A DNA stretch of 64,000 bases. Source: Marsupella aquatica. Lineage: Eukaryota; Plantae; Marchantiophyta. Made by a program: the position numbers and the translations under genes. Position 1 is the first letter of the stretch; each line of letters starts with the position of its first letter. The DNA is taken from the NCBI GenBank assembly GCA_973895155.1, contig OZ316895.1:742435-806434 (forward strand). Reading direction: 5' to 3'. The notes below the pieces were generated by a model, which worked only from the letters and a program-made list of their open reading frames with translations, made no database searches and was not told the origin of the DNA. Below are positions 1 through 30,635 of the stretch, in pieces.

Positions 1-302
1 CTAGATAAGTACCCGATTCAGATCGAAAATTACAAGTCTCTTCTGAACCGGTGACTTCTTTGCCGATGGATTAGGCACCATCTGTACCTGTGATTTTTGT
101 GCCGCAGGGTTTGGAGAACGTACTAGAACGGTCTATTTGTTTCCTGCCTCCGGATGATCACCGGACTTCCGGACTGGTGCCTTCGATACTCGATTAGGGG
201 GTTTCGGGATAGGCTTCTGTAAAACATTAAGAAATGAAAATAAGTTTATAACGCGAATGGTCGCGTGACTACAAAGAGAGACACTAAAATGAAGTGTATT
301 AC

Positions 303-1090
303 CTGTACAAGACGGTCGTTCAGTGCTGGAATTCCGCCGGAAATGTCAATCATAGCAGCACGGATCCCGGTAACTAGGTTACTTGCGGACGTCAGCTTGC
401 GGAAGTCCATGTCAAATAACGACAAGACTATCTCCCTACGGAATTTCTCAATTTGATCCGCGGCAAAATTAATTCTGTTTCCTTGACACAAGCACTTGGC
501 GTATCTCAAGATAAACACACCACAACTGTGGCCGTCACTCTGGTGAGGAATATCATTCCGATATATCCGTTCCCAACCTGAGAGATCCAAGTTGACACCA
601 GTTCTCTAGCCAATTTCGTCGGCGTAGTACTTCCCAACAATATCTAGCACCCCAGGATTTTGTCGATTATGAACTAGAGAATCTAGGTACTCCAGCCATT
701 TCTCCTTCGGATACAAGACTACCAATGACCAATGTTCTTTCACAGCATTGTGTACTGGAAAGACCAGTTTGTCGTATTCACTGATTTTTAGCGGAAACTC
801 CTTTGTCCAAGCTGCTCTCTCCTCGTCGAAAATGGTAGGATCCATGGAGAGAAGCTCAAAATGGTGTGTTGGAAGAATTTGACAAGGTCTGAATTTCCAA
901 CTCTATCGAGAATCAGTTCGAGAAAACTCAAATAAGCGTTAATTATATCATCGGTGAGCAACTCGCGCGGTCTCAAACACATCATATGTTTCCTCTTGAT
1001 CGAGTGTTGTAAGAACTTGGTCAATAGCTCTTCCATATCCTTAGAAGGATCAAGGCATTGATCTATTCGACTAGCCAAATTTTCAAAAAA
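303..1090 (-). pseudogene. Ulp1/peptidase C48 SUMO-protease domain exon
   Basis: Contains LTDDIINAYL, FPVHNAVKEHWSLVV (catalytic His), YLDSL (Asp) and PHQSDGHSCGVF (oxyanion Gln, catalytic Cys). Split by one frameshift and one TAG. Confidence 0.9.
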
Positions 1091-1139
1091 CTGCAAAAAA
1101 CAGAGATTTCAGTACGCCTTCAAATAACGTACTGAGGTT

Positions 1140-4100
1140 TGTGATGCCTAGACAGGAATCACTCGGCCGGTTAAGTGGGTAAAGCAGGAAGGCACCCTAG
1201 GAACACCTTAGTATAGTGACAAAACAAGGAAAATATAAACAATTAGGGGCAACCATGGAACCCGGGCAGAGGCCGGAGGTAAGGCTAAGGGTGAAAACCC
1301 GATTAGGGTTAGGGCGCGTTAAGCGTCGGCGGCTAGGAAGGATCAACGGGAAGAAGGACCGGCAGAGGAGAGGGGTAAGGAGCGCTTGCAGGAGATGGTG
1401 GCTCATTTGCGAGCACGAACTAGGCAGACGACTACGGGAGGCCAACTACTGTCAGCTGCTTAGGCAAGCACTCGGGGAGAGAGTAGATACCGACGATCGA
1501 CCTAAGGAGGGTATGAGCAACGTCAATCAAGCGGCACATTTCTGGGGATGCCTGTTCGAACGGGCAACTGAGTACATCAAGACTTACGAGGACGAGGAGT
1601 CAGAAAGGGCAGCTCGAGAACGGCAGGAGCTCGCTCGATTGTGGGAGCTGCAGAAGACGGCTTTCTTAGGAGGCGAACTCATCAAGGACGAGTTCCTGTG
1701 GATGCCTACTTCCAATCAACTCGACGATCTTCTGTTTTGCAAAGACAGCGTCGTCGGCATCCGAGAGGCCATCAAGAACTGCAACGACATACACTGGGAA
1801 TTAAAGGGTAGCACGGAAAGGTGGACCCAGGCAACGGTGCTAGGAGAAACCTCCACGGCAGCAGAGATGAAGAGGAAGGGAGCCATCAACGATGAAGCCA
1901 CCCCGGCAAAAAGAACGAGGTCGGCGGCACCAAAGAAGCCAGCCGAGCAGCAGAGCAGGAGGCAGGGAGAAGCCGAAGAGGAGGAGGTCGATCCCATCAA
2001 GGCCATTCCAACCAGGGATGACACCTGGAAGGGCTGGGCGGCAACCCTACCGGTGGAGGTGCAACTACATTTTGCACGGGAGGAGGATGCATGCTTTACG
2101 GCCATGCAGACCAAGAAGTACCAAGGCTTCATGGCCGGATCCGGCTTGGAGGCCTTTGTAAGATTACCATGGCTGAAGCCGGAGGTACCGGAGTCAGACC
2201 TATTAGAATTCGTGGGGTCATGGGAACCCGAGACCAATTGCACGAGGATATATGGGAGGGATTTCTATCTTACTCCCAAGGTAATTGCCGAAGTGTTTGG
2301 CTTGCCGATAGGCAATAAGACCAAAGTTGATACCAGGAAGACCTTGCCTGACAAGGAGTTCCGGTCGTTCCCCGGGCCATCAACGAAGAATGGCTTCTTC
2401 CGGAACACCTGCACCAACCCGCACATAGGAGAGATGATCGACTTCTTGCGGGTGACCATGCATTGTAACTTGCCGAGGGCAGAGATCGGCAAGGCACAGG
2501 TCTATCTGGCAGAAAGGCCAGACCCAAGCTGGGACTACAACGGGTACCTCCTCAACCAATTGAAGAAGATCTTAAAGGAGGAGCAGCAGGTAATCGGCAT
2601 GGGGAGCGTGTCGCGGCTTGGCTATCACATGCCGCTGTTGTGCCGGTATGCCAGAGGTCAGACTTTTGCCCCGGTACTTCCCCTGCAGGTAAGGGCACCC
2701 GAGGAAGCTCCAACGCCGAGGCCGTTGGCTGAGAAGCCTCCACCACCTGTTAGTCCTACGATCGAGCAGGTGTTTAGGCCCAGGAAGGAAGACTTGTCGA
2801 TGCAGCAACCAGACATGCAGAGTCTGCTGAAACTACTGGAGAAAGAAAAGAAATTGGCATCGGCAACAACAACGGCAACGGCAACAATGCAGGACACTAC
2901 TACAGAGGTAGGCCTACACCGGCTCACAAGAGAAAACCCCTTTGCTGGAAACAAGGAGAGAATCAGGCCGGAATCCAAGCCAGGTGTTCGAATGTACATG
3001 GGAACCTCAAGCTCCGAATCTGAGGCAGAATTGCCTGAAGCTCCTACCGACGAAGAGGAGAGGGAGAAGCCGGACGTCCAAGAAGTAGAGGAGGCAGTGG
3101 AGGACTGCAGCCATGATAATTCCGGCTATGGGTCGGACCATCACGTTCCAGGAGTAAGGACCTATGGCCGGTTTGTCCCCACACTTCCAAGGGTAGTGCG
3201 AGGGGACCCCAACCAGCAGAGTAGCCCTGAGTCTCCCCCACCAGATGTTGCTCCCCCGAGCTTCGACGACATAAAACAGACGGTGCAGGAATTTCAGGAG
3301 CGAATCAAGCAGGAGGAAGAGGTCGCCCTGGCTAAGGAAAAGGATTTACCAGGAGGAGATTGGCCGGAGGACATCAGGCGGCTAGCCGAAAAAGGAAGCA
3401 AACCTCTAGCCACGATTGAAGAGATCCGCAGGACGGCTTGGGAGCAGAGGCCACGATGGGCGATGCCGATCACTTCTACTTACTCCACCTACGCTAAGAA
3501 TAGAGCCATGGAGTATGGTGAGATGTGTGGGGAACTTGAGCTCGGCATCTTTGGAGAGGAGTTGGAGATAGGACCCTTTTTCCATAGGGAGCAGTTGGAG
3601 AAGCACCAATTAGAAGAAGCGGTGGCTTTAGAGAGAAGCAAGAAGGACGAGGTCATTCGGCGGCTTAGGAGGATGGAAGCCGAGATTGAAGATCTAAGGG
3701 CGGCCAAGAAAGCCCAAGATGAACTGCGGATTAAACGACATGAGCTGAACATCATGCAGGGGCAGTTGGACACCGCGCAGGCTGATAATCAGAATATCAA
3801 GGATAAACTGACTCAGACGCAGGAAGAGTTGGCCGACACGATCAAAGAGAGGGAGAAGTGGAAGCAAGAGCTGAAGAATACAGAGGAGGCCCACATAACA
3901 GCCAACAGCCGGGCCATGGCGGAGACCCAAAGAAAGGAATGGGCGTTGAAAGGGGAGCTCGAGAAAATCCGCGGAGCCCTTGAGCAGAAGGAGGTCGAGT
4001 TAGGGAAATCCTATCAAGGGATTATGGCGCTGCAGCAGGAGCTTGCGTCCCTGACGGCCAGCTTCAAGGCCGACCTAAGGGAGAAGGACGAGATGCTCGA

Positions 4101-5790
4101 ACAGACTTACGCCAAGATGAACCAGATGGAGTCTGTCATCATTGTAGAGCTCGACAAGGAGCTAAGAGCAACCCAGGAGGAGAGGGCTACCTTGAAGAAG
4201 GAATTGGAGGAAGCCCACAGGGAGCAGGAGGAGGCCAAAAACGAGCTGGAGGGGGCACATAAGGACCTGGATGAAACCCAAGAGGAGTTGGAGGAAATCA
4301 CGAGGAAGATGGAGAACCTACAGCGGCGGGCCGACAACCAAACAGAGCGGCTGAAGAAACAAGCCGCAGTATTTAAATGCTTAGCTGCAGCAGGTCCATC
4401 TCCCGTTGGGACAAACCAGTTACCAGGGGTGGTAATTGCCGAAGGACAAGCCGCGCCAACTGCACCAGTGCCGGAAGTAAGTGGGAAGGGGAAGGGACCA
4501 GCTGCCGAGCCACCAACGAAGAAGAAGCGGAAACCTTCAGGGTCAAGGAGTAATACGACTTCACAGGCCGTGGTGATCAAGGAGGTAGACCCAGCACCGA
4601 CCCCAGACAGGGTCACGGCTAAGGATCCAACTACCCTAGGGGAAGGGGAGGCCGAAGCCGAGGGAGTGGCTGAAGCCGAAGCCGTGGGAGTGGCTGAGGC
4701 CGAAGCCATGGGTATTGCCGAGGCCGGTGTCGAGGCTGAAGCCGAAGGTGGACCCAGTCAGGCCGATGGAGAGTTGACTCAGTCAAGGGCAGGTAATCTG
4801 TCAGTAGGCGGGCCAACGGCAGTGGCTGAGGAGGAAGTGTTGGGGGCGTCCATTGAGGATCCACCACCGGTGTCGTGACGGTGCAAGGGCGCCGTTCCTT
4901 TTAGGGAGGGCGGACGTGGAGGGAGGAGGCGTGAGTGGGCAGGGCGGGCGCGGATCTCCACGTTTAGGATTAGGATCAGAACCAGGAGCGGCCCTGACAC
5001 TTAGCTTAGTGGGATTGCGGTCCCACTGGTAGGAGCAACACTTGTGCTCCTGCCTTGCTGTACATAGGTAGATTCGGGCAAGTAGATGACTGTCAGGTAG
5101 ATTAGGCTTACGATGCAAAGAATGGCGGATCCACTACCAGGATAAGTACCTGGGCAGCGGGGAGCTCAGGGCCTCTTCTTTAGCAAGTTTTTAGTTTGCA
5201 CCAGCCGGGCTGGGATCAAGTAGTACGAGAAGCTCTCGGTTAGTCATACAGTGACCCTTGTGTATATTCATGTTTCCTCATGCCTAAGAGCTGAATAGAG
5301 TTGGCCTCACGGCTTAGTTCGCAGAACTTGTGTATGAGATGTACTGTTTGTATGGCAAGTGCATGGTATGACTCAGTCAGAATGAGTCATTTTGCTATTT
5401 GTGTGTCGCATTAACTTGTGTGAAGAGTGCCCACATCAACAGAAGGAAGGAAAGTAAGCAAGGGAGTGAGAGTTGGATGTGTCGAGCTGAGAGAGGTCTT
5501 AGCGGCTTAACCAAGCCTATTGGGGATCATTCCGGCGGCGGAATCCAAACATACCTAACAAGAAGACAGGGGAAGACAGGGGAAGGCCTATATTAGGCCG
5601 GCTACGTATCTCATGACCCGATGAAGGATCTGTCCAGTATATGTGTGTAAAATGTTAATAGTAGTAGCAGAAGGTTAGCAGCGTCCCATGCCGCTAAGCC
5701 GCGGAAACGGCCTCGCCAAGCACGAAACCTGCGGGAATCGGCTTGAGCTGGGGGGTTTCTTGGGTTTAGGGAGCCATGGGACGCACCACA
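1140..5790 (+). mobile_element. Solo-LTR-like element family A, copy 1 (4651 bp), inside an intron of the multidomain gene
   Basis: Starts TGTGATGC and ends GCACCACA (short imperfect inverted ends). 5-bp TSD AGGTT at 1135-1139 and 5791-5795. No gag/pol and no internal direct repeats. A second copy lies at 14285-18943. Confidence 0.9.
1513..4878 (+). CDS. LTR-borne protein (~1121 aa from ATG 1513; frame open from 1216) with a plant-retrotransposon accessory-ORF-like domain and a long coiled coil
   Basis: Intact ORF. The segment GLEAFVRLPW..LLEFVGSW..IYGRDFYLTPKVIAEVFGLP (~2128-2312) resembles plant mobile domain/Transposase_32/Athila-ORF1-like motifs. Heptad-rich region at ~3590-4370. TATAAA at 1234-1239. 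Confidence 0.75.
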   Translation: MSNVNQAAHFWGCLFERATEYIKTYEDEESERAARERQELARLWELQKTAFLGGELIKDEFLWMPTSNQLDDLLFCKDSVVGIREAIKNCNDIHWELKGSTERWTQATVLGETSTAAEMKRKGAINDEATPAKRTRSAAPKKPAEQQSRRQGEAEEEEVDPIKAIPTRDDTWKGWAATLPVEVQLHFAREEDACFTAMQTKKYQGFMAGSGLEAFVRLPWLKPEVPESDLLEFVGSWEPETNCTRIYGRDFYLTPKVIAEVFGLPIGNKTKVDTRKTLPDKEFRSFPGPSTKNGFFRNTCTNPHIGEMIDFLRVTMHCNLPRAEIGKAQVYLAERPDPSWDYNGYLLNQLKKILKEEQQVIGMGSVSRLGYHMPLLCRYARGQTFAPVLPLQVRAPEEAPTPRPLAEKPPPPVSPTIEQVFRPRKEDLSMQQPDMQSLLKLLEKEKKLASATTTATATMQDTTTEVGLHRLTRENPFAGNKERIRPESKPGVRMYMGTSSSESEAELPEAPTDEEEREKPDVQEVEEAVEDCSHDNSGYGSDHHVPGVRTYGRFVPTLPRVVRGDPNQQSSPESPPPDVAPPSFDDIKQTVQEFQERIKQEEEVALAKEKDLPGGDWPEDIRRLAEKGSKPLATIEEIRRTAWEQRPRWAMPITSTYSTYAKNRAMEYGEMCGELELGIFGEELEIGPFFHREQLEKHQLEEAVALERSKKDEVIRRLRRMEAEIEDLRAAKKAQDELRIKRHELNIMQGQLDTAQADNQNIKDKLTQTQEELADTIKEREKWKQELKNTEEAHITANSRAMAETQRKEWALKGELEKIRGALEQKEVELGKSYQGIMALQQELASLTASFKADLREKDEMLEQTYAKMNQMESVIIVELDKELRATQEERATLKKELEEAHREQEEAKNELEGAHKDLDETQEELEEITRKMENLQRRADNQTERLKKQAAVFKCLAAAGPSPVGTNQLPGVVIAEGQAAPTAPVPEVSGKGKGPAAEPPTKKKRKPSGSRSNTTSQAVVIKEVDPAPTPDRVTAKDPTTLGEGEAEAEGVAEAEAVGVAEAEAMGIAEAGVEAEAEGGPSQADGELTQSRAGNLSVGGPTAVAEEEVLGASIEDPPPVS

Positions 5791-6779
5791 AGGTTGTAGC
5801 CTAAGGGTTGTAGCCTCAGAAAATAGAAACAATAACAGATCAATAATAAAATAATGACGTCTATAATAGAAACTTTAAGCTTATAGCTTGCGAATGACCT
5901 TTGGATTGGGTGGATCCGGCCTTTTCACAGCTGATCTCTTGGGTGCCTCAATCGCAACAACATCCTTCAGCCCTCCTCGAGACCGCAGTGATCGCTCCAC
6001 CGGACCAGTTTGCGAAGGTTGGAGCGATGAGGCGGGAAGACCTTCAAATGGTTGTGGCATTTGATTCAAATATTCCACAATCTAGGAATCCGATTCCAAA
6101 ATATCCGGTGCCACAATTTCTACGCGAGTCACCTCTGCAATATATCGGGGTCGAGACCACGAACCCGGTCGCGTCAAGTCAGCTGTTAGTCTCTTAACGA
6201 CTTGAGCCAAGTCTGGTGCCAAAAACATTCCCAGGTCTTGCACTCGATTCTTGGAAAAGCGGACATTATTGATGATTGTCTCCATTCTGGATGCAGTGGC
6301 AGTCTTCTCCTCGGTAATCAAAAGACCCTTCCAATATTGCAAAGCAAGGACTGCCTGGACTCGGAGCTGCTCCGGTGAATATTTATTCCAATCATCCAAC
6401 GAGACCGTACTTAAGGGTGGATCGTTAAATTCAAACTCCGGGCGAAGAAAATAGTCTAATATTTTCTTCTTAACTGCAACTGAGGGTGAAGAAGGCTTTT
6501 TCAAATTCAGCCTTATTTTCGGTAGATGTTGTGCCTCAGGAATAAGCGAAAGATCCTTGGCCCTCTCGGCCTCCTTCCTCACTGCCTCCAGTCTTGCGGC
6601 TTCTTCTCTCTCCAGTCTTGCGGAATCGACCTTTTCCGCCTCCAACTTCTCCGCCTCCATCCTCTCCGGTCTTGCGGTCTCGTCCACCATCCTCTCGGCC
6701 AGCAGCCTCTCAGCCGCCACACTCTCCGCCTTGGCCCTATTTTCCTCTGTCACTAAAAGGACTCTCACAGCCTCCGTGT

Positions 6780-7395
6780 TCTCGGCCTCCGCTTTCTCCG
6801 CCTGGGCTTTCTCAGCCTGGGCTTTCTCAGCCTGGGCTTTCTCAGCCTCCGCTTTCTCCGCCTGGGCTTTCTCAGCCTCCGCTTTCTCCGCCTGGGCTTT
6901 CTTAGCCTGGGCATTCTCAGCCTGGGCTTTCTCAGCCTCCGCTTTCTCCGCCTGGGCTTTCTCGGCATCCGCTTTCTCCACTTGGGCTTTCTCAGCCTCC
7001 GCTTTCTCCGCCTGGGCTTTCTTAGCCTGGGCTTTCTCAGCCTGGGCTTTCTCAGCCTGGGCTTTCTCGGCATCCGCTTTCTCCGCCTGGGCTTTCTCGG
7101 CATCCGCTTTCTCCGCCTCGGCTTTCTCCTTCTTCTTCGCGGCAGTTGCTTTTCTAGCTGCTGCCTTTTTCTTCTTAACCTCCTTCTTTTGAAGCTCCTC
7201 TTGCCGGGCCGCCTCTTGTCGGGATGCCTCCTCCTGCCGGGCCGCCTCCTTCTTTTGAAGCTCCTCTTGCCGGGCCGCCTCCTGCCGGGCCGCCTCCTTC
7301 TTTTGAAGCTCCTCTTGCCGGGCCGCCTCCTGCCGGGCCTCCTCCTGCCGGGCCGCCTCCTCTCTGGCCTCCTCCTGCCGGGCCGCCTCCTCTCG
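6780..7395 (-). repeat. Coding minisatellites: 15-bp AEKAQ/AEKAE units (~6780-7130) and 18-bp EEAARQ-type units (~7190-7395)
   Basis: Tandem GCCTGGGCTTTCTCA and CCTCCTGCCGGGCCG units within ORF 6082-7572. Confidence 0.95.
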
Positions 7396-10300
7396 GTCCA
7401 CCTCATGTCGAGGCTCCTGTGTGGCCTCTTCATCAGAGTCCTCAGCATCCTCGGAACCCTCCATCTCCTCATCCTCTTCATCAGCGTCCTCAGCGTCCTT
7501 CATCTCCTCTCCGTCACTCTCTTCATCTCCTCTATTGTCAGAATCTCCGACATCGTTCTGCGTATCGGTCATCCACTTTGGATCTTGGTCATTGACATCC
7601 CCATCCGCGTCACCTTCCGCGTCACCTTCCCCTCACCATCCGCATCACCATTGCTCCCTGCATCCTCAACATTGAAGCTGCAGTCGACTTGATCTGAATA
7701 AAATCAAATCATTTGATAAGAATGACTCACGCGCATATTCGCGTGAAAAGAAATGTTATGAATGTCCACGCGCATGTTCGCGTGACGCAATAAAAAGTAA
7801 GAGGTTTCAAAAGTAACTTACCTTGGATTGGCCCACTAGGGTACTCCGTTGGTCGAATATACAATCAATCGGAATCTTCAGAGAGTGCATACTCTTGCAA
7901 TAATTGATTACAAATATTATCAGGGATATGTTGTTCGTGGAGGACATCCAAAACATCAGCCCTGAGAGCAGTTACGGATGGACGGTACTTCATTAATTTA
8001 TCTATACATTTTTCTATACTAGCCCGTACTGGGTCAATCAATGACAGCGTTGTATCAATTGTCACCGTGGTGTGTTGCAAGAAACAAGACAACTCCCTAT
8101 GCGTTGCCACAGGGCAGTAATATTTTACATTGGATCCAACATCCTGTAAAAAAAACCGAAATTAGTTCACAATATTAATTGAGAATATAATAATCTAAAT
8201 AATCTTAAAATCGAAACCCCAAAATATAAATCTCAAAACTTACCATTAAGCACTGGATCAAGTTCGTTCCCTCACCGAAGCATATAGCCCATTCCCCACA
8301 TTGGACGAATTGACTAACAATACTTTCAAAGAATGGAAGTATCTTTTCTGGGGAAGGTGTCGTGAACTCGCCGCTCTCTTCAAAATTGGCTATCTTCTCA
8401 ATCTGATATTTGGAGACCAATTGGAACTCGAGGGCTTGTGGATCGCCCATTGTGCTGAAGGCCAAGCTGTGAAAAGCGTAGGTTACAATAAGCTTCTTCT
8501 CCTTCGGCCGCTTCTGAATATAATGGCTATCGACAGCAACGTAGTGTGTGTACTTCCCTAATTCCCGTTTGATTAAGTAAGACTCAACGGGAGAGGCTAC
8601 AATAATAACCACATGGTGTGGTTTTGCCCCTATCTCGCTAGTAGCACGAAATAACCCCTCATAGAATGAGCAATTTGGCGGACGCAAATCTCCCATTGAT
8701 GAGGGATCAAAATAAATCAAGCTCGCAAGGTTCTTGTCTTCACGTATGATACAGTCTGCAAACCCAACATTTTGTATATCCTGTAGGGATTGCAATTTCA
8801 GCCTCTCACCGATCGGCCGCACTAGTTGGTTTCCTTGACTATCAACTGATTTCTGTATTCCTTCCACCAACCTGTAGAATATAGGGTCGATCTCCTTCAA
8901 CAAATTATCATTACTAATATTTACATTTAAGCACTTCTTCAGATAACCACTCAACGCATCTCTCAACTGCTTCAGCACCATCTTGTCGAGCTTAAAGCGA
9001 TCAATCATTCCTTTGACCCGCAATTTCCGCGCTGAATCTGTCAGACTTTTCAGCTTCGTCCGGGTGGATGTTTCCCCGTTGAGTTTACTCAATAATAAAA
9101 TCTCAAACTCAACTTTCGTCTTCTTCTTTATACAGAATTGCTCCAAACTCATGCTGGTCGTTGACAACACTGGAGCCTCAGAGGACTTCCTTGCCTTCCC
9201 AGATTTCACTTTGATGTTTCGGTTTTTGAGTATAGACAGTCTTCCGCTCAACATATATTCCGCTGCCTTTCGAAGAACCGAGTCTGAGCACCCTTGACAA
9301 GAACGGAATGTCTTCTTTAGAAGATGATAAGCACACGGATTATCCGCAATTTTGACGGCGTCCCTCTGTAAAATTCCGTTGTAAATTACAAGCTCTCCTG
9401 TCCTTGATAGTTCGTAGACCTCCATCCACTTCTTGAATGTTTTGTCCTCCATTGTAAAGAGAAACAGAGCCAATTCTCCAAATTTCATCATTTCGTTCTT
9501 CCCCATTTGAGCCCATGGGCAAACAAAACTCGGAGCTCTCATAAATACCTGAAAAACAATGGAAACATGACAATTCTAAGCTTGACGCGACCGTTCGTGT
9601 GACAAAAGTTTATACGATAATGTGATCGAAGAGGGTTATTTATATACCTTCCAATTTGAATGACGATAATGTGATCTAGGCCGCCCAAATGAGTTCCAGA
9701 TATTACGACACTGTCGTACAATGGTGAGAAACTGTCCTTCTTCCATTGATGTTTGATGACAGTGGTTCAGAGCTTTCGATAATCCCATCAAATGAACATT
9801 ATTGTCGTTGTTGAGCGTTACCCAAAACATTACAGCTTCTACAGTACCGCAAGCGTCTCGTACAACTTGGCTGACTTTGTCGTCCTCTCTTAGCAATTTG
9901 TATGCCATTATTGTGTGCTGGCCTCCGAGTATCCAGAAATGACTGGTCATAATGTCCTCCTCCTTTGGCGATGAATCGTAGGGTGTCCCATTGTAGTCGG
10001 GATCTCTGTCGGCCTCCAACTGAACCCACTTCACAGGGACTAAAAAGTAGCATCGCTTCTCAAACTTTATAGCCGAATGAGAGAGGAGTGAATTCTTTAG
10101 CCTATCTGTGTAATCCTGATTCCACTCTCGGCACTTGATGTGGTCCTGTGCAAGATGACAACGTGATGTCTCAACAAAAAATGACTTGTTGTTAAATATA
10201 TTCACAGCACTATATTCTTTGAGGAAAGAATCGAACATAGCCCCGACATTCGCTGAGGTAATTACTTTCGGAAGATTCTCCGCCAAGTATACTTCAACCT

Positions 10301-10961
10301 TGCTCACTGGCGGGGCCTTTCCCAAGCGAAATCCCTGGTTGAAAGGAACTCTCTGGAACTCAAGTACGTCAATAATGTATTGACAAATCAAATCTCCCGT
10401 TGATGCCTCTGGATCGGAAGGATATCCCACACTAGTAACCTTTTCCAAGGCGTGCCTTGCACCTAGAAGATCATTGATTCTGGGCTGATTGAAGGTTACA
10501 TATTGCGTTCGATCTAAACAAATGCTTATTTTGTCTTCCTGCTGGTCGTCGCTGACTAGCAGAACCAATCCCTCTGTACACTCTTTAACTTTCATGTTCT
10601 TCTCAAAGAAACACCCGAGAATTTTTGATCTCTCCAAAACTGTAGCTTTATCATTTCTTGCCACCACAAGACGGACAGCCCCATTGCGAACGACTATTCC
10701 AAAATTGGATATCTCAGTCGATTCAAAGAGATGGATACTCTTTGTCTCCGTTGTTCTCTCTCTGATTGACTTTCCTCGATATGCAAGTATGGATGTCTCC
10801 GCGGGAGTCATTTTTGTCTTGGTTTTCTTTCGAGAAGCAGCTTTAGACGAGTCTCTTTTCCGCTTTGAGGTTCCGGCAGGATCCATTCTGAAACAGACAA
10901 ATATTGAAAGTTAAATGTTTATTATAAAATACTAACACGCGCATGGTCGCGTCATGCCGAA

Positions 10962-11492
10962 TTACATTTTAGGAACATTTATCCTGACCCAATCTTCTCG
11001 CTCATCTTTATCTAACCAAAACCAAAGGTTCCTAAACGTGTCAAGTTCAGATCCTTCAAATCCACCCAAAATGTCCAGTGGCGGGAGAGTTCTAATGGAT
11101 TCTGTAAATCTTAATGCTACACTCTGTGAAGTCAAATGCCTTCGAAGCGATTCATATCCTGGTCTATCAGTGAAGTCGTAAGCTACCAAGGTGACCGTCG
11201 CCCAAGTACTACTATAAGTAACTATGTGGCACCACTTCTTACTGACTGTTCGAATGGCGATCAAGTCCATGACCCGATTTTTAATCGCAGTATCCGACAA
11301 ATTCCCAAGATAGTGGAAAAACTCTTTGACTAATGGCCAAATATATTTCTCGACAATATCGTCCGAAAGACCGGATATCAGGTCTTCAGCTTGACTCCAT
11401 ATCATGTTTCGGTTCATAACCTTTGCATGTGCAATGCGCTCCATCATCATTTGACGATGAGATTTTCGATTCATGTCAAAGGACTGCAGCAT
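10962..11492 (-). CDS. F-box-like protein, paralog 3 (intact, ~170-176 aa)
   Basis: LISGLSDDIVEKYIWPLV...IAIRTVSKKWCHIV...W matches the F-box pattern LPGLPDD(I/L)...LRxVSKxW. Confidence 0.65.
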   Translation of the reverse strand: MLQSFDMNRKSHRQMMMERIAHAKVMNRNMIWSQAEDLISGLSDDIVEKYIWPLVKEFFHYLGNLSDTAIKNRVMDLIAIRTVSKKWCHIVTYSSTWATVTLVAYDFTDRPGYESLRRHLTSQSVALRFTESIRTLPPLDILGGFEGSELDTFRNLWFWLDKDEREDWVRINVPKM

Positions 11493-11526
11493 AATATGGA
11501 AAAGATTAAGAACAAGAACCTATCCA

Positions 11527-12093
11527 TTAAGAACTGGGACCACCGAGATTCTGAGAAAATCTACCAAACCTTTCGATTAGGACATCTCGTTCTTCCTCAT
11601 CTAAATTGTTATATTTGTTCGTAAACAATGCGATTTTGTCAGAAGTAGTAGTCCCAAGAACAGATATTTTTGGAAGCATAGAAATATCCTGTCGAATAAC
11701 TCGACAGACTGAGTCAAACTCCAACTCGTCAGTTTTGGGTATGTCGTAAAGAGCATCATTTGCGACATCGACAATCCGGTTTGCTTGTTTGAGGATAGCC
11801 CATAACCTTGTATTTGTAACTAAAAAGTTCCACTTCTTGCTACAAGCTCCAAGCCGAATAAGGTCTCGGACCCTATCGATAACCAAATCGTTATCGAGGT
11901 GTCGATATCCACGCAATCTTTCAATTGAAATAAAGTGTTCGTAGAGTATTGGCCAAATGTTTGAAATGACCAAAACATCTGGTATTCCTCCAATGAGACT
12001 AGAGGAGGTTTCATCCAGCGTATCCCATATTGTTTTCTATTTCTTTTCATGAGATGAAAGGAAATCTCGAGCCTCATTCAAAAGTTGGCTCAT
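11527..12093 (-). pseudogene. F-box-like protein, paralog 2 (one in-frame TAG near the N-terminus)
   Basis: ATG at 12093 gives MSQLLNEARDFLSSHEKK*KTIWDTLDETSSSLIGGIPDVLVISNIWPIL...IRLGACSKKWNFLV, in frame with ORF 11527-11973. Confidence 0.65.
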
Positions 12094-12227
12094 CCTGCTT
12101 TTATCATATCACAAAACATTGTTAGAAGACATACGACGCGCTTGGTCACGTAAGTTAACTAGAATTCCTTAAAAGCGTAGATGTCACCCTCAAGGTATCC
12201 AACTTCGTGGCATCTGACTATAAATTT

Positions 12228-12739
12228 CTATTTTTCAAGAGGGTGAAGAGCATCGTAAGTCTTCGTGAAGAGTTTCCTAAGATCTCTGGATATTGACCCC
12301 ATGAATTTAATTCTTGGGTATTTCTGGAAGAAACTTTGAACTGTCGATGAGAGAGACTCATTTCCGATCGGTTTAGTAGGATTTCCTGGGAAAGCCAAAT
12401 CTAATAAACTCAACTTGATTACACCCAGAAGATAAGTATTCCCAACAAGGTGGCGCCATCTACGACACACCGAAGATAGTCCTACAAACTCATCCAATTC
12501 CTTTATTGAGAAATTTCCTGCATTAGCCGAGGAATTAAAGTCTCCTGGATCCGAGGCCATATCAATTCCACGACAATGAAATCTGGAAGTCCAGGTAGTA
12601 GTGTTTCAACAAATATAGAATATCCCGCCAGTAGACCATCTTGGCTTCTGTCCAAAACGTCAAATATTGGGCATAGATATCTGAAGCTCTCCAGACCAGG
12701 TTCGCCCATGACTCTTTTCAGCCAAATGATATATCCCAA
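12228..12739 (-). pseudogene. F-box-like protein, paralog 1 (frameshifted)
   Basis: LLPGLPDFIVVELIWPRI in ORF 12503-12739 continues after a frameshift into GLSSVCRRWRHLVGNTYL in ORF 12228-12560. Confidence 0.65.
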
Positions 12740-12849
12740 AGATTATTTTCACGCGACTGGTTGCGTCTACAAATCAGAATGCATAAACAATTCTTTGAGA
12801 GACTGATTTTTTCGGGTCACAACGTGACAAATCATAAATGTTGCTTCGT

Positions 12850-13600
12850 CCTCTAACAGAACCAGTCAATGAGAGAGCAACCTCAGATGCAACTGGTCGC
12901 GTCAACTGAACCTAAACAACTATATCCACTGAACCTTCCTTGTGGAGATTTGGATATGGTACGCGCTCAGTAAATCTATCCAGTTTCCTTCTCACACGCG
13001 ACTGGTCGCGTCAAATGGTCCTAAAAGGAACCTTACCTCCTCTAACAGAACCAATCAATGAGAGATCTACGTCAGACGCGACTAGTCACGTCAACTGGTC
13101 CTAAAAGGAACCTTACCTCCTCTAACAGAACCAGTCAATGAGAGAGCAACCTCAGACGCGACTGGTCGCGTCAACTGAACCTAAACAACTATATCCATTG
13201 AACCTTCCTTGTGGAGATTTGGATATAGTACGTGCTCAGTAAATCTATCCAGTTTCCTTCTCACACGTGACTGGTCGCGTCAACTGGTCCTAAAAGGAAC
13301 CTTACCTCCTCTAACAGAACCAATCAATGAGAGATCTACGTCAGACGCAACTAGTCACGTCAACTGGTCCTAAAAGGAACCTTACCTCCTCTAACAGAAC
13401 CAGTCAATGAGAGAGCTACCTCAGACGCGACTGGTCGCGTCAACTAAACCTAAACAACTATATCCATTGAACCTTCCTTGTGGAGATTTGGATATGGTAC
13501 GCGCTCAGTAAATCTATCCAGTTTCCTTCTCACACGCGACTGGTCACGTCAACTGGTCCTAAAAGGAACCTCACAGTATTTTCACGCGACTGGTCACGTC
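12850..13600. repeat. Tandem array with a 269-bp higher-order unit (80+80+109 bp), each subunit carrying an ACGCGACTGGTCGCGT palindrome
   Basis: Palindromes start at 12887, 12996, 13076, 13156, 13265, 13345, 13425, 13534 and 13584. The period of 269 is seen in 12996/13265/13534. Confidence 0.95.
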
Positions 13601-14284
13601 AACAGCTCAAACAACTTTTGGACAATAGGAGAATACAGTGATACAACTGTGATTACTGACCCGTACGGACAAGGAAATCCAAGTAAGCATGATTTCATTC
13701 ATTTGTATTCATTCATTTGTATTCATTCATGAACTTTACAATAATTCAGATGTTTGAGCTCTGTCATTGTGAAACTATTATATATCAAAAGTTTAGAGAA
13801 TGATCCAGCTAAGATGATTCAATTTAGTAGTCTACTGGTTGTATTCGTCAATTAAAGGATTCAATGTAATGAGATTCACATAACATGAGAGTTTATATGA
13901 TTAAATTCACAGCGTGCAAGTTTGTAATGACTTACTTAAGACGATTCAGGTTGTATTTTAATTAGTGAGTTTGTATGATTCACACATATTTGAGTTTACA
14001 AACAAACCGCATTATGAAAACTGTGCTTAACAATCAAGAGAAATTTTAGCAAACCACAATCAACACCAGCAGAAAATGTAGAAATTACACCTGAATTCTG
14101 AAAAATTGATGTAATCGTCTAAGAGATTGACGTCCAAGCACTTGAAGACCTTGCTGCGGCATTCCAGAAAGTAAATAAAGATTGAAGATATTAATATGCT
14201 AAGCAACAACAACACAGCTTCTATACTTCTATACATAGAGCTTCGCTGCCACCAATTGAATAACATGTGCTTAATGCTAAGGAG

Positions 14285-17200
14285 TGTGGTGCGTCCCATG
14301 GCTCCCTAAACCCAAGAAACCCCCCAGCTCAAGCCGATTCCCGCAGGTTTCGCGCTTGGCGAGGCCGTTTCCGCGGCTTAGCGGCATGGGACGCTGCTAA
14401 CCTTCTACTACTACTGTTAACATTTTACACACATATACTGGACAGATCCTTCATCGGGTCATGAGATACGTAGCCGGCCTAATCTAGGCCTTCCCCTGTC
14501 TTCCCCTCCGTCTTGTTAGGTATGTTTGGATTCCGCCGCCGGAATGATCCCCAATAGGCTTGGTTAAGCCGCTAAGACCTCTCTCAGCTCGACACATCCA
14601 ACTCTCACTCCCCTGCTTACTTTCCTTCCTTTTGGTTGATGTGGGCACTCTTCACACAAGTTAATGCGACACACAAATAGCAAAATGACTCATTCTGACT
14701 GAGTCATACCATGCACTTGCCATACTAACAGTACATCTCATACACAAGCTCTGCGAACTAAGTCGTGAGGCCAACTCTATTCAGCTCTTAGGCATGAGGA
14801 AACATGAATATACACAAGGGTCACTGTATGACTAACCGAGAGCTTCTCGTACTACTTGATCCCAGCCCGGCTGGTGCAAACTAAAAACTTGCTAAAGAAG
14901 AGGCCCTGAGCTCCCCGCTGCCCAGGTACTTATCCTGGTAGTGGATCCGCCATTCTTTGCATCGTAAGCCTAATCTACCTAACAGTAATCTACTTGCCCG
15001 AATCTACCTATGTACAGCAAGGCAGGAGCACAAGTGTTGCTCCTACCAGTGGAACCGCAATCCCACTAAGCTAAGTGTCAGGGCCGCTCCTGGTCCTGAT
15101 CCTAATCCTAAACTTGGAGATCAGCGCCCGCCCTGCCCACTCACGCCTCCTCCCTCCACGTCCGCCCTCCCTAAAAGGAACGGCGCCCTTGCACCGTCAC
15201 GACACCGGTGGAGGATCCTTAATGGACGCCCCAACGCTTCCTCCTCAGCCACTGCCATAGGTTCATTCTCTGACAGATTACCTGCCCTTGACTGAGTCAA
15301 CTCTCCATCAGCCTGACTGGGTCCACCATCGGCGTTGGCATCGGCTCGGGAATCGGTTACGGCCTCAGCCTTGGCTACGGTCTCCCCGGCCTGCTCAAGA
15401 GGTGGATCTGGAATACTGGCCTCATTACTGAGTAGTTCGGCTTGGGCCGCACCACCCCCACCTGTGATGATAGTGGGATCTATTGCCGTATTCATGCCGG
15501 AGGATGGTGCTGGTTCTACCTCCTTGGTCACCACGGCTTGTGGAGTCGGATTACTCCTTGACCCTGAAAGTTTCCGCTTTTTCTTCTTTTCTGGTTCGGC
15601 AGCTGGTCCCTTCCCCTTCCCACTTACTTCCGGCACTGGTGCAGGTGGCGCGGCTTTTTCTTCGGCCAGTACCACTCCTGGTAACTTAGTTGCCCCAATT
15701 GGAGTTGGGCCTGAGGAAGACAAGCACTTAAATACTGCGGCTTGTTTCTTCAGCCGCTCCGTTTGGTTGTCGGCCCGCCGCTGGAGGTTCTCCATCTTCC
15801 TCGTGATTTCCTCCAACTCCTCCTGGGTCTCATCCAGGTCCTTGCGTGCCTCCTCTAGTTCCTTCTGGGCTTCCTCCCATTCTTGTTTCAAGGTAGTCCT
15901 CTCCTCCCGGGTTGCTCTTAGCTCCTTGTCGAGCTCTGCAATGATGACAGACTCCATCTGGTTCATCTTGGCGTAAGTCTGATCGAGCATCTCATCCTTC
16001 TCCCTTAGGTCGGCCTTGAAGCTGGCCATCAGGGACGCAAGCTCCTGCTGCAGCGCCATAATCCCTTGATAGGATTTCCCTAACTCGGCCTCCTTCTGCT
16101 CAAGGGCTCCACGGATTTTCTCGAGCTCCCCCTTCAACGCCCATTCCTTTCATTGGGTCTCCGCCATGGCCCGGTTGTTGGCTGTTATGTGGGCCTCCTC
16201 TGTATTCTTCAGCTCTTGCTTCCACTTCTCCCTCTCTTTGATCGTGTCGGCCAACTCTCCCTGCGTCTGAGTCAGTTTATCCTTGATATTCTGATTATCA
16301 GCCTGCGCGGTGTCCAACTGCCCCTGCATGATGTTCAGCTCATGCCGTTTAATCCGCAGTTCATCTTGGGCTTTCTTGGCCGCCCTTAGATCTTCAATCT
16401 CGGCTTCCATCCTCCTAAGCCGCCGAATGACCTCGTCCTTCTTGCTTCTCTCTAAAGCCACCGCTTCTTCTAATTGGTGCTTCTCCAACTGCTCCCTGTG
16501 GAAAAAGGGTCCTACCTCCAACTCCTCTCCAAAGATGCCGAGCGCAAGTTCCCCACACATCTCACCATACTCCATGGCTCTATTCTTAGCGTAGGTGGAG
16601 TAAGTAGAAGTGATCGGCATCGCCCATCGCGGCCTCTGCTCCCAAGCCGTCTTGCGGATCTCTTCAATCGTGGCTAGAGGTTTGCTTCCTTTTTTGGCTA
16701 GCCGCCTGATGTCCTCCGGCCAATCTCCTCCTGGTAAATCCTTTTCCCTAGCCAGGGCTGCCTCCTCTTCCTGCCTGATTCGCTCCTGAAATTCCTGCAC
16801 CGTCTGTTTTATGCCGTCAAAGCTCGGGGGAGCAACATCTGGTGGGGGAGACTCAGGGCTACTCTGCTGGTTGGGGTCCCCTCGCACTACCCTTGGAAGT
16901 GTGGGGACAAACCGGCCACAGGTCCTTACTCCTGGAACGTGATGGTCCGACCCATAGCCGGAATTATCATGGCTGCAGTCCTCCACTGCCTCCTCTACTT
17001 CTTGGACGTCCGGCTTCTCCCTCTCTTCGTCGGTAGGAGCTTCAGGCAATTCTGCCTCAGATTCGGAGCTTGAGATTCCCACATACATTTGAACACCTGG
17101 CTTGGATTCCAGCCTGATTCTCTCCTTGTCTCCAGCAAAGGGGTTTTCTCTTGTGAGCCGGTGTAGGCCTACCTCTGTAGTAGTGTCCTGCATTGTTGTC

Positions 17201-18943
17201 GTTGCCGTTGTTGTTGCCGATGCCGATTTCTTTTCTTTCTCCAGTAGTTTCAGCAGACTCTGCATGCCTGGTTGCTGCATCGGCAAGTCCTCCTTCCTGG
17301 GCCTAAACACCTGCTCGATCGTAGGGCTAATAGGTGGTTGAGGCTTCTCAGCCAATGGCCTCGGCGTTGGAGCTTCCTCGGGTGCCCTTACCTGCAGGGG
17401 AAGTACTGGGGCAAAAGTCTGACCTCTGGCATACCGGCACAACAGCGGCATGTGATAGCCAAGCCGCGACACGCTCCCCATGCCGATTACCTGCTGCTCC
17501 TCCTTTAAGATCTTCTTCAATTGGTTGAGGAGGTACCCGTTGTAGTCCCGACTTGGGTCTGGCCTTTCTGCCAGATAGACCTGTGCCTTGCCGATCTCTG
17601 CCCTCGGCAAGTTACAATGCATGGTCACCCGCAAGAAGTCGATCATCTCTCCTATGTGCGGGTTGGTGCAGGTGTTCCGGAAGAAGCCATTCTTTGTTGA
17701 TGGCCCGGGGAACGACCGGAACTCCTTGTCAGGCAAGGTCTTCCTGGTATCAACTTTGGTCTTATTGCCTATCGGCAAGCCAAACACTTCGGCAATTACC
17801 TTGGGAGTAAGATAGAAATCCTTCCCATATATCCTCGTGCAATTGGTCTCGGGTTCCCATGACCCCACGAATTCTAATAGGTCTGACTCCGGTACCTCCG
17901 GCTTCAGCCATGGTAATCTTACAAAGGCCTCTAAGCCGGATCCGGCCATGAAGCCTTGATACTTCTTGGTCTGCATTGCCGTAAAGCATGCATCCTCCTC
18001 CCGTGCAAAATGTAGTTGCACTTCCACCGGTAGGGTTGCCGCCCAGCCCTTCCAGGTGTCATCCCTGGTTGGAATGGCCTTGATGGGATCGACCTCCTCC
18101 TCTTCGGCTTCTCCCTGCCTCCTGCTCTGCTGCTCGGCTGGCTTCTTTGGTGCCGCCGACCTCATTTTTTTTGCCGGGATGGCTTCATCGTTGACGGCTC
18201 CCTTCCTCTTCATCTCTGCTGCCGTGGAGGTTTCTCCTAGCACCGTTGCCTGGGTCCACCTTTCCGTGCTACCCTTTAATTCCCAGTGTATGTCGTTGCA
18301 GTTCTTGATGGCCTCTCGGATGCCGACGACGCTATCTTTGCAAAACAGAAGATCGTCGAGTTGATTGGAGGTAGGCGTCCACAGGAACTCGTCCTTGATG
18401 AGTTCGCCTCCTAAGAAAGCCGTCTTCTGCAGCTCCCACAATCGAGCGAGCTCCTGCCGTTCTCGAGCTGCCCTTTCTGATTCCTCGTCCTCGTAAGTCT
18501 TGATGTACTCAGTTGCCCGTTCGAACAGGCATCCCCAAAAATGTGCCGCTTGATTGACGTTGCTCATACCCTCCTTAGGTCGATCGTCGGTATCTACTCT
18601 CTCCCCGAGTGCTTGCCTAAGCAGCTGACAGTAGTTGGCCTCCCGTAGTCGTCTGCCTAGTTCGTGCTCGCAAATGAGCCACCATCTCCTGCAAGCACTC
18701 CTTACCCCTCTCCTCTGCTGGTCCTTCTTCCCGTTGATCCTTCCTAGCCGCCGACGCTTAACGCGCCCTAACCCTAATCAAGTTTTCACCCTCAGCGTCC
18801 TTACCTCCGGCCTCAGCCCAGGTTCCATGGTTGCCCCTAATGGTTTATATTTTCCTTGTTTTGTCCCTATACTAAGGTGTTCCTAGGGTGCCTTCCTACT
18901 TTACCCACTTAACTGGCCGAGTGATTCCTGTCTAGGCATCACA
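14285..18943 (-). mobile_element. Solo-LTR-like element family A, copy 2 (4659 bp), inverted relative to copy 1
   Basis: Ends TGTGGTGC...GCATCACA. 5-bp TSD AGGAG at 14280-14284 and 18944-18948. Near-identical to 1140-5790 along most of its length. Confidence 0.92.
15121..18567 (-). pseudogene. LTR-borne coiled-coil ORF of copy 2, interrupted
   Basis: Same protein as 1513-4878, with AGA>TGA at 16150-16152 and a frameshift near the 3' end. Confidence 0.85.
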
Positions 18944-20849: not shown

Positions 20850-21800
20850 TGCTATTGTTTATTGTAGTCGACGGCCTAGCAAAACGAAACGTAATCGAGG
20901 TCCATTTTTCAGATCTTCCTGATCTCAACTTGTTAGTAGGATGACCTGTTTTTTGGTTACACATGTAGTTCATCACGCGCACAGTCGCGTGAACCAATTT
21001 ATCTCGTGTCTTTTGATATTGTTTATTGTAGTCGACAGCCTAGCGAATTGGCCAGCAATCTATTTTAAAACCAACGTCTTCATTTCATCACGTGCACGGT
21101 CGCGTTAATGTTTTAGAGGTCAGCAAAAGCTCTGCACTCTCAGACGTAATCGCCCTTTATTTCTCATATCTTCCTGATCTCAACTTGTTAGTAGGATGAC
21201 CTGTTTTTTGGTTACACATGTAGTTTATCACGCGCACAGTCGCGTGAACCAATTTATCTCGTGTCTTTTGATATTGTTTATTGTAGTTGAAAGCCTAGCG
21301 AATTGGCCAGAAATCTATTTTGAAACCGAGTTCTGATTCACGCGACCGGTCGTGTTAATGTTTTAGAGGTCAGCGAAAGCTCTGCACTCTTAGACGTAAT
21401 CGCCCTTTATTTCTCAGATCTTTCTGATCTCAACTTGTTAGTAGGATGACCTATTTTTTGGGGTACACATGTAGTTCATCACGCGCACAGTCGCGTGAAC
21501 CAATTTATCTTGATATTGTTTATTGTAGTCGACTGCCTAGCAAATTGGCCAGAAATATATTTTAAAACCGAGGTCTTCATTTCATCACGCGCCCGGTCGC
21601 GTTAATGTTTTAGAGGTCAGCGAAAGCTCTGCACTCTTAGACGTAATCGCCCTTTATTTCTCAGATCTGCCTGATCTCAACTTGTTAGTAGGATGACCTG
21701 TTTTTGGTTACACATGTAGTTCATCAAGCGCACAGTCGCGTGAACCAATTTATCTCAGGTCTTTTTGATATTGTTTATTGTAGTCGGCAGCCTAGCGAAT
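20850..21800. repeat. Tandem array, ~250-bp unit x ~3.7, with two ACGCG-N6-CGCGT palindromes per unit
   Basis: Repeated GATCTCAACTTGTTAGTAGGATGACC blocks. Palindromes at 20975, 21090, 21230, 21340, 21481, 21587 and 21726. Confidence 0.93.
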
Positions 21801-23600: not shown

Positions 23601-25863
23601 TGACCGACGTGACAGGACAGTGCAGTGAAATTGACGGACGTGACAAGACTGTACGCTTACAGTGATATTCTCTGATGTGCAGGATCATAATTATTATGGT
23701 GACATCGACAGTCTGGATCAGGGAAGGCGGACAAGTTATTATAGGCATACGTGAGAAACAGGTTGGAAAAGGTCGCGTGATAAGTCTTGATCCTTCCAGG
23801 GTTTGTCACAATGTTCCTCTTGGGGCGGACAGAGTTCTTCTTCTATTGGAGGAAGTTTTTGACGAGACCATTCTATGCGAAGATGGCAAACTTTTGAAGG
23901 ACATGATTGGGGGTTACCTTGTATGGGAAAGGAATCAGCTTTTTCGAGCTCCCATGGAATCGGAGGATGTGTTTGGCACTGTTGGTGATGATCAAGATCC
24001 AGTCAATCAAAATTCTGATGGGAACAACCATAATGAGAGTCGGTCTGGTGTGGAAGTAGTTTTACCAAAGGCCTTGTGGATGGGCATGCCTGTAAAGGTG
24101 GTGGATGAGAACAAGTTGATTTTTGCAGTGGCAACTATACATGTTCTAGATCCTATAGTGAAGCTTGGGGATGTCACCCTTGGGAATACACATGTGGGAA
24201 TTCTGATCAACGATTTTGTCGAGGGAGCTACCATAGATCATCTGAAGCATAGAGATTGCTTAAAAGCTTGGTCGATGGACCAACTCATTGCCAAGGATGG
24301 CAACTTGTTGTCTTTCCACAACATCAGGCAAGCTATGGGAGGGAACACATCTCCAACAAGTGGCAAGCGGTCCTACGTCCATAAAAGTAGGAAAAGAAAG
24401 AGTCCATCTTCCCAGACATCTAGAAGAGACACATCTTTGGCACGTCAAGATGTGTTGTTGATAAACACTAAGGACTGTTGTAGTGAACATTGTTGCCAAT
24501 ATTTGGACCGCAACTTGGCTATGGCAATTAGGCAAAAGTGGTGGTCAAAATCTTTTGCGGAGCGCAAGGAGGAGGTAATCAAGGCTATTAAAAATACAAT
24601 ACACTTGGGTACTAGAGAAAGGATTCTAGCAGTGGAGGGCAAAGTATTGTGCTTGGAGGCATGGAGAATCATTCATTCAAGAGGAAAGACTCAATTTTAT
24701 GCCTTGAAGAAGACTGTGATGGCTGGAATGAACATAGGTACCCATGGTAATGTTGGAAAAAGGCGTATGTCCGAGAAAGTATCTCTAGCATTCATGTCAA
24801 TGAAAGAGATTATTGAGGAGGCAGCTGATCATCATCCAGCCAAGTTGAGAACCATGGCAGATAATACAAGGATGGTTTTGAGGGAATTGCCAACAAATCT
24901 TACTTGGGAGAATATTAGAAACAGGGTTAATGTTGTCAACCAGGAGGCTTGTCTTCCTCCAATTTCCCAACCCACCTTGAGTCATCTACATCAGATTTAT
25001 TTTAGGGAGTTCTCACGTCACAAAAAGGGCAACAACTTTTCAAAGTGTACAACTTGTAGTGAGTTGCTTCAACAGAAAGCAAACCTTACAGGAGCTAAGG
25101 AAGAGTTAGAGGGCCTAAGGCGTGACGAGGAGGAACATCACCAAGACCACACACAGCAAAGAATGTGCTATCATGCCTGGAGATATGAGTCCATCCATCG
25201 TCCAAAGGAAGTGTTATGCCTTATTCATGATAAGATGGATCATTCAAAGACAGCTCTCCCAAGAATGCCCTTCAATCCTAAGCATGTGGATGGTGCCCAA
25301 AAGTTCCCAATTACTGTTGTCACGTCATCGGCTGCGGCCTTAACTCAGACTTCAGCTTAGACGGGCACATCCCTCGTAAATCTGAGGGTTCGGGCAGGAA
25401 GGGAAGCACATAATGCACCTTATTCTCGTAAACTAGCGCTAAGTGCGCATACTGCTAAATACGGACACCTCCTAGGTATGGTTTGTGTTCCGCCGCCGGA
25501 ATGTACCTTAGTCGATAGCAGGATCGACCCCGGCTTAAGGGCTTCTAAGCCTTCGTGCTGTCCGCCTTTGATCCAGATTCGATGATACAGGTCCTCAACC
25601 CGTGCTCGCAACCACTTACCCGCAGGCTGCACCCTGTGCACGTCTCGGGTAGTGCGTTCGGCCTGGCGCTGCCACCCATATACGAGAAACCCACACACAT
25701 ACACGCGCACATGCATACAATCTCGATTTACATGAAGGAAAATGATGGGAAAGGATTTTACTACAAAGGGAACATATGCGTACACTTAGTTGACCCGACA
25801 GCCCCGGAATGAACAGGTTCAAGGCCGAGGGTGCACACTACAACGGAGCGCGGCTTCGCACTC

Positions 25864-30420: not shown

Positions 30421-30635
30421 GAAACAATGAATGACAGTTTAATTAAGGATTTGTGCATGGATCAAGAGGTACTTGATGTCATTTAGTGATGCATTGTTAT
30501 AAAGATCTTGCAACAAAACATTTGAAGTTTTTGACTATCCCACCAAATGTTAAAGAGGTTGATCATTCATTAACTAATAATATTTAGATAAAATTGGAAT
30601 TAATCTAATACTTCAGTATTCCTTAAATTGGGGTT

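Follow-up and report, generated by a model that had tools for sequence, protein, structure and literature searches.

A predicted inactive beta-class amino-methyltransferase fold in the accessory gene of a giant liverwort DNA transposon

The DNA analyzed here is a 64,000-nucleotide stretch, hereafter the window, from the liverwort Marsupella aquatica (contig OZ316895.1, positions 742,435 to 806,434 of the forward strand). Its left half is largely occupied by a giant DNA transposon, referred to below as the host element, which enters from the left of the window, extends to ∼30.4 kb, and is more than 18 kb long. An accessory gene lies on the strand opposite the transposase, and the two belong to one multicopy element. 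Along its minus strand the element carries three F-box-like frames, the accessory gene, an acidic/EKA-repeat exon, and a Ulp1 segment. Our subject is a domain in exon 2 of the accessory gene that resembles the beta-class DNA amino-methyltransferases, in which the catalytic motif IV precedes motif I, the loop that binds S-adenosylmethionine (SAM). The parts of the gene are listed here with the evidence for each.

9648 to 10886, minus strand: exon 1, 413 residues, with a ParB/Srx-like C-terminal half (ILGGQH) as a lead (Atlas; Calypogeia homologue)
8811 to 9548, minus strand: N-terminal part of exon 2, conserved and mostly helical, between the ParB-like and methyltransferase-like domains (homologues)
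8244 to 8810, minus strand: exon-2 part of the beta-class amino-methyltransferase-like domain, from the first strand to motif I and the next helix (AF2, Foldseek, VIA; model residues 4 to 192)
8697 to 8732, minus strand: degenerate motif IV, LIYFDPSS, with the Asp alone conserved across the family (alignment of relatives)
8265 to 8354, minus strand: motif X/I region, EKIL..F...CFGEGT, with a degenerate SAM-binding loop (alignment of relatives)
7822 to 8143, minus strand: exon 3, helical tail, with an in-frame TGA at 7867-7865 (open frames, splice signals)
6082 to 7693, minus strand: exon 4, acidic and EKA-repeat tract, with a frame change near 7628 (open frames, other copies)
246 to 1108, minus strand: coding segment for a Ulp1/C48 SUMO protease, with an in-frame stop at 608-606 (Pfam PF02902 above the cut-off, in two pieces)

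The spliced gene starts at 10886, and its exon limits were set from splice signals; introns 1, 2, and 3 measure 99, 100, and 128 bases and have GT..AG ends. Exon 2 (9548-8244) encodes 435 residues. The degenerate motif IV peptide, NLASLIYFDPSS (8732-8697), and the motif X/I peptide, SPEKILPFFESIVSQFVQCGEWAICFGEGT (SPEK...FGEGT, 8354-8265), share one minus-strand frame, with 114 codons between them and 126 from start to start, and both fall within a 456-codon open frame (8205-9575), at the end of exon 2. Exons 1 and 2 encode a single protein, since two proteins of the leafy liverwort Calypogeia fissa cover both: P0039 matches exon 1 over 398 residues (32%, E 1e-72) and continues into exon-2-like sequence, and P0004 spans the junction between the exons (E 2e-10). 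The N-terminal part of exon 2 (8811-9548) gave no family match. Exon 3, judged by eye and from outside the model described below, likely supplies the last strands of the methyltransferase fold; it had no significant match to P0019, and a likeness noticed on inspection at the position of motif II was not counted. Near 7628, other copies carry one base more than the window copy. The Ulp1 segment is separated from the rest by an insertion and probably forms the last part of this gene. Within exon 4, 15-bp tandem repeats (6687-7422) encode EKAQA/EAARQ units.

The exon-2 part of the domain, without exon 3, was modeled by AlphaFold2 (AF2) with 19 sequences, giving a predicted local distance difference test (pLDDT) score of 82.4 and a predicted template modeling (pTM) score of 0.84; folding with 3 sequences gave a pLDDT of 33. 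Foldseek placed CcrM at the top (E 2.7e-7, template modeling [TM] score 0.57), with M.BceJIV, TTHA0409, M1.HpyAVI, MboIIA, RsrI, and MT-A70 proteins below it, and all 36 matches listed are beta-class or MT-A70 amino-methyltransferases. A VIA search of 48,161 chains returned permuted amino-methyltransferases at every rank from 1 to 19, led by MboIIA (Z 13.1, root-mean-square deviation 3.5, 164 of 192 residues aligned) and including CcrM (Z 12.9), PvuII (11.2), and the bdelloid N4CMT (11.1). Most unpermuted Rossmann methyltransferases align over residues ∼1 to 130 only, with Z values up to 7.8, as the beta-class permutation predicts. MT-A70 chains reach Z 7.6 to 10.4, against 11.0 to 13.1 for the best ten prokaryote-type enzymes, and METTL14 and MTA9-type chains are also among the matches in both searches. 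In BFVD, phage N4/N6 methyltransferases were the top named viral matches. The model, even without the exon-3 strands, thus shows a Rossmann-type methyltransferase fold with motif IV ahead of motif I, and from it we conclude that the domain almost certainly has the beta-class DNA amino-methyltransferase fold in its permuted order.

The family is recognizable by structure and escapes the domain libraries. A whole-library HMMER search found 25 proteins at E up to 0.001, and cluster members together with the last search brought the set to 39 identifiers; the named relatives all come from C. fissa (6 entries among 20 proteins looked up). Searches of Pfam, PHROGs, NCBIfam, and PDB sequences and tblastn against phages produced no methyltransferase or ParB match, none of 15 family members matched Pfam PF01555 at E up to 1, and no MT-A70 Pfam match appeared among the members searched. 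Atlas lists N6_N4_Mtase clusters at 0.85 for the domain, which we treat as a lead. A word-index search for long relatives (763 to 2175 residues) found none among 6664 candidates, which is weak evidence, and the scanned JGI metagenome and IMG/VR contigs contained no relatives of exon 2, exon 1, or the transposase.

For comparison with canonical enzymes we kept 34 beta-class methyltransferases from 75 viral loci, leaving out near-identical or partial loci and L055, which has an internal stop; P0029, which does not cover the domain, was left out of alignment A3. As bare motifs, motifs IV and X/I are no better than chance, and a 3-sequence profile scored 16.5 against the 34 enzymes, below its reversed control (19.1). 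A 17-row profile, in a colinear global alignment of 169 columns, matched the Asp with that of DPPY and aligned CFGEG to DPFxGSG. It is this alignment, together with the fold match, that lifts the observation above chance.

Motif IV is covered by 12 relatives in 9 clusters, all of them close, with 13 to 46% identity in the domain. The Asp is kept in 11 of the 12 and PP(Y/F/W) in none, and the Pro of DPSS occurs in the window copy only (0 of 12 relatives). Motif I reads cF(G/S)(E/K)G where canonical enzymes have DPFxGSG (10 rows); its Phe..Gly is kept in 9 of the 10, and the acidic residue ahead of it is replaced by Cys, or by Ile in one row. Across 37 homologues, many of them fragments short of the motif, neither (D/S/N)PP(Y/F/W) nor DxFxGxG was found. 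In the canonical set, 25 of 34 enzymes have (D/S)PP(Y/F), and the 8 exceptions listed still keep P-Y. Changing SPPY to APPA abolishes the activity of the bdelloid N4CMT, according to the mutant described in PMC8885841. By these sequence criteria the domain is very probably catalytically inactive, throughout the family and not in the window copy alone, and it is likely built like the N6_N4_Mtase enzymes without being one of their active members. Motif IV variants also occur among the viral beta-class methyltransferases, seven of which (L043-L045, L052, L063, L064, and L076) have DLPY, DIPY, or DVPY.

An earlier, sequence-only reading of the window had proposed two degenerate motifs, the beta-class fold with its motif order, and probable inactivity, and all three are borne out by the positions, the structure matches, and the alignment given above. 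Its suggestion that relatives may still methylate found no support, with no canonical motif in the 37 homologues (only 12 of which cover motif IV) and no intact DPP(Y/F/W) in those 12. The kinship it drew with N6_N4_Mtase holds for structure, which matches the beta class, and not for the PF01555 profile.

Among relatives at 21 to 46% identity the frames are open, the core residues conserved, and the exon end shared, a pattern suggesting that selection may have kept the domain as a pseudo-enzyme. We found no prior report of such a catalytically inactive form in a liverwort element in the open-access literature, nor any paper there on a liverwort or bryophyte transposon with a ParB plus amino-methyltransferase gene.

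The remaining features of the host element and its insertions are the following.

249 to 30376, no strand: 20-bp palindrome T(C/G)ACGCG-N6-CGCGT(G/C)A, 30 copies (pattern search)
23666 to 29750, plus strand: DUF7869 transposase-like gene, interrupted at 25318-27988 (PF25273, E 2e-37)
10962 to 12605, minus strand: three short tandem F-box-like open frames, below the cut-off (Pfam)
1140 to 5790, plus strand: later insertion, a 4.65-kb TG..CA element with a 5-bp duplication, solo-LTR-like (LTR, long terminal repeat), outside the host element (repeats, empty site)
14285 to 18943, minus strand: second copy of the 4.65-kb TG..CA element, inverted, with its own 5-bp duplication (repeats, empty site)
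25318 to 27988, no strand: 2.67-kb TG..CA insertion with a 5-bp duplication, within the transposase gene (empty-site joint)

Raised depth is continuous and the palindromes are shared from 249 to about 30400, which places the accessory gene and the transposase in one large multicopy element. In run X1, depth is 459 for a contig that matches 8308-8704 exactly, compared with 13.6 for a unique one matching 34824-38800 exactly, and transposase contigs stand at about 700 to 740; taking depth as a rough guide, this points to tens of near-identical copies. The transposase frame is continuous across the empty site, with the 25312-27989 joint present in 3 of 3 runs. The window copy itself is damaged: it contains insertions, its frame shifts near 7628, and in-frame stops interrupt it at 7867-7865 and at 608-606. 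It is likely a dead copy.

The palindrome occurs 30 times in the 18.5 kb of the host element and never in the remaining 45.5 kb (insertions, 12 kb; flank, 33.5 kb); 30 Markov shuffles contained 0 to 3. Because the element supplied the pattern in the first place, the fair comparison is with the other 45 kb. Introns 1 and 3 contain sites, as do the gaps between genes and the tandem arrays at 12749-13601 and 20973-21743. All except two (28 of 30) are in the accessory arm and central arrays, and the others are near the apparent right end (30109 and 30357). The CpG ratio at codon junctions is 0.71 to 0.99 in the accessory genes versus 0.23 in the transposase (Fisher p 1.5e-5), which fits long protection of the palindrome-rich arm from methylation.

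A few further observations concern the element and its surroundings. Observed/expected CpG is 0.08 to 0.44 in the transposase arm (23700-30450) versus 0.51 to 1.06 elsewhere, with a sharp change within the element. DUF7869 may be linked to the Sola1 superfamily. The start of the transposase gene (23666-24300, plus strand) holds two unassigned, repeated segments of the GRVISLDP... type and its end (29253-29747, plus strand) a Trp-rich segment; neither region has a Pfam match, and they may be chromatin- or DNA-binding domains. With the F-box-like frames and the Ulp1 segment, two ubiquitin/SUMO-pathway modules sit in one element; plant DNA transposons often carry Ulp1-type proteases as cargo. The 4.65-kb element, much more abundant than the host element, has a 1225-codon open frame with coiled coil, a weak QLQ resemblance, and no family above the cut-off, which is unusual for a solo LTR. 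Its inverted copies were considered as ends of the host element and rejected, as they are separate insertions with their own 5-bp duplications and contigs join both empty sites. The 2.67-kb element is also abundant and carries a minus-strand 308-codon coiled-coil frame. To the right lie broken copia-type reverse transcriptase regions (RVT_2) at 30627-33047 and 45630-47066 (plus strand); the second may have its LTRs in the direct repeats at 42468-42817 and 47353-47681. Bacterial contamination was rejected on the strength of the spliceosomal introns, the copia neighbors, and the liverwort homologues.

How might a family that has lost its catalytic motifs serve the transposon? The reading that we favor, with a probability of roughly 0.55, is that the domain is a dead beta-class fold in a transposon accessory protein which helps that protein bind the element's 20-bp palindromes and shields the element from silencing. 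The ParB-like domain would read the palindrome. The dead methyltransferase fold would contribute subunit pairing and an extra DNA contact, as the fold does in beta-class enzymes, which according to the work presented in PMC10406627 act as dimers with divided labor. The bound protein, with its SUMO-protease tail, would then protect the element against silencing by the host, much as VANC does, and a damaged copy such as the one in the window would rely on other copies. The best reading of the accessory protein as a whole is thus one of predicted function only, a self-recognizing and possibly anti-silencing factor.

Binding and anti-silencing are the weak links of this proposal, and a number of points weigh against it. 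The fold model does not include exon 3. The global score of the 17-row profile is modest, since among block shuffles 2 of 164 and 4 of 166 also attained 12.3 (none of these with an alignment longer than 140 columns), and its local score of 21.4 was exceeded by at least 7 of 266. The ParB label of exon 1 comes from Atlas only, with feature scores of 0.95 for DUF3723 (178 shared features) and 0.92 for ParB_N (126) and a recognition value of 2213 that is below the tool's threshold, and exon 1 has no ParB match in Pfam, PHROGs, NCBIfam, or the PDB, so that ParB-likeness is a lead. Intron 2, which lies inside the methyltransferase domain, has no palindrome. Binding of the palindromes and the function built on it are predictions, and the reader of the palindromes could instead be the transposase or an F-box-like product. 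The CpG contrast could be explained by gene-body methylation of the transposase or by a differing age or source of the two arms. Finally, the proposed join from exon 3 to exon 4 to the protease would, in the window copy, have to cross a stop, a shifted frame, and an inserted element.

A different and rather improbable explanation is that the domain is a decayed leftover of an ancestral DNA methylase, one which lost catalysis in the liverwort lineage and persists only as a folded spacer separating the ParB-like part from the C-terminal tail, with no role of its own. Compared with the region preceding it, the domain has the lower identity in all 4 of the closest full-length relatives (46 versus 59, 33 versus 43, 27 versus 33, and 24 versus 32%), which favors this explanation a little; the Calypogeia gene models P0004 and P0019 end in the domain or skip part of it, and the damage to the window copy points the same way. 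Against this stand the frames that are open across the domain and six surface-type residues of exon 2 (Asp281, His312, Tyr343, Tyr357, Glu391, and Glu401), kept in 8 to 10 of 9 to 10 rows at 21 to 46% identity, which exceeds the needs of a spacer.

We consider it unlikely that the protein is a transposition helper like the TnpA of CACTA, one which binds the palindromes and, with the transposase, brings the ends of a long element together with no role in silencing. ParB proteins do bridge and slide on DNA, the element is long, and two palindromes are near its apparent right end; the other 28, however, lie far from that end, and CpG retention tracks the site-rich arm. Helper and anti-silencing roles are compatible with each other.

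Also unlikely is an active, unusual methyltransferase, acting on DNA (N4-methylcytosine [4mC] or N6-methyladenine) or on RNA with the kept Asp and a remodeled loop, or else an inactive heterodimer half like METTL14 or MTA9: the retained motif IV Asp and motif I Phe..Gly, the METTL14 and MTA9-type chains among the fold matches, and the genuine 4mC system that liverworts own (MpDN4MT1) are outweighed by the loss in 12 of 12 relatives of the Pro-aromatic pair, which canonical enzymes keep and which grips the flipped base, by the Cys or Ile ahead of motif I, and by the fact that no partner methyltransferase gene was seen in the part of the element within the window.

The closest known counterpart of the favored palindrome-binding accessory protein is found in an alga. 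As described in PMC12477816, Sola1-1_Ec32 of Ectocarpus is a 21.5-kb transposon in which the strand facing the transposase encodes a 1104-residue protein that joins a ParB-like domain to an N4C/N6A methyltransferase, and that account suggests that such accessory proteins of algal transposons form a class that binds and marks its own element. Compared by description, the two elements are alike in size class, in the opposed orientation of accessory gene and transposase, and in the order of a ParB-like domain (a lead only in the liverwort) followed by a prokaryote-type amino-methyltransferase domain. They differ in host, here a land plant; in the liverwort family, moreover, the catalytic motif is absent throughout, and an acidic/repeat tract and Ulp1 segment follow. 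In the Bostrychia Plavaka elements, as presented in bioRxiv 10.1101/2025.02.11.637652, PAG2 combines an N6_N4 methylase with SET and PAG3 a ParB-like domain with a 2-oxoglutarate (2OG) oxygenase. These again are giant DNA transposons with a ParB-like gene, an amino-methylase domain, and tandem inverted-repeat arrays, proposed in that preprint as binding sites and located beside PAG3, whereas their domains are in separate genes, the methylase matches PF01555, and the transposase is EnSpm/Plavaka.

The sequence-only reading had described a ParB-methyltransferase fusion captured by a plant transposon from prokaryotes. The domain is indeed fused behind exon 1 and the setting is indeed a transposon; the ParB half of the claim has the Atlas scores behind it. 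Direct capture by this element would be one route of entry, and inheritance along a eukaryotic transposon lineage is at least as likely, because the same pairing occurs on algal transposons. Transfers of amino-methyltransferases from prokaryotes to eukaryotes have been repeated, and those recounted in PMC4738411 include inactive copies in DIRS1 elements.

With CcrM, M.MboIIA, M.RsrI, M.PvuII, and the bdelloid N4CMT the domain shares its fold and permuted motif order (Z 11 to 13), unlike them it has neither (D/S)PPY nor DPFxGSG nor a PF01555 match, and sequence identity is only 6 to 13%. Marchantia MpDN4MT1a/b, characterized in bioRxiv 10.1101/2021.02.12.428880 as an active host 4mC enzyme with TSPPY and no added domains, is likewise a prokaryote-type beta-class fold in a liverwort; the domain described here is, by contrast, transposon-borne, part of a multidomain protein, and without TSPPY. 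As an analogue in working we look to VANC of Arabidopsis VANDAL, whose proven anti-silencing activity, in the account of PMC5735166, goes with motifs in introns, intergenic regions, and tandem repeats, the same places in which the liverwort element has its element-specific short motif. No homology to VANC is shown, the VANC motifs in that account are 8 to 9 bp and nonpalindromic, and its activity is proven where ours is predicted.

What is new here appears to be the dead-enzyme form of an accessory gene, ParB plus amino-methyltransferase, that was already known in algal transposons, in a family that domain libraries miss altogether. A bolder and doubtful extension would be that giant liverwort transposons have a sequence-specific anti-silencing system of prokaryotic parts, in which a ParB-like reader of the CpG-rich palindrome, a dead amino-methyltransferase dimer that grips DNA, and a SUMO protease keep the accessory arm free of host 5-methylcytosine, as a second, independent origin of VANC-like protection in land plants. 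To our knowledge, detailed accounts of how transposons evade methylation by the host exist for few families (VANC and TnpA). If the anti-silencing reading is wrong, the gene would still be new, as an ordinary representative of the algal-type class of cargo. A land-plant family in which the fold was kept and catalysis dropped suggests that binding, and not marking, is under selection, and the defined 20-bp site makes that binding directly testable.

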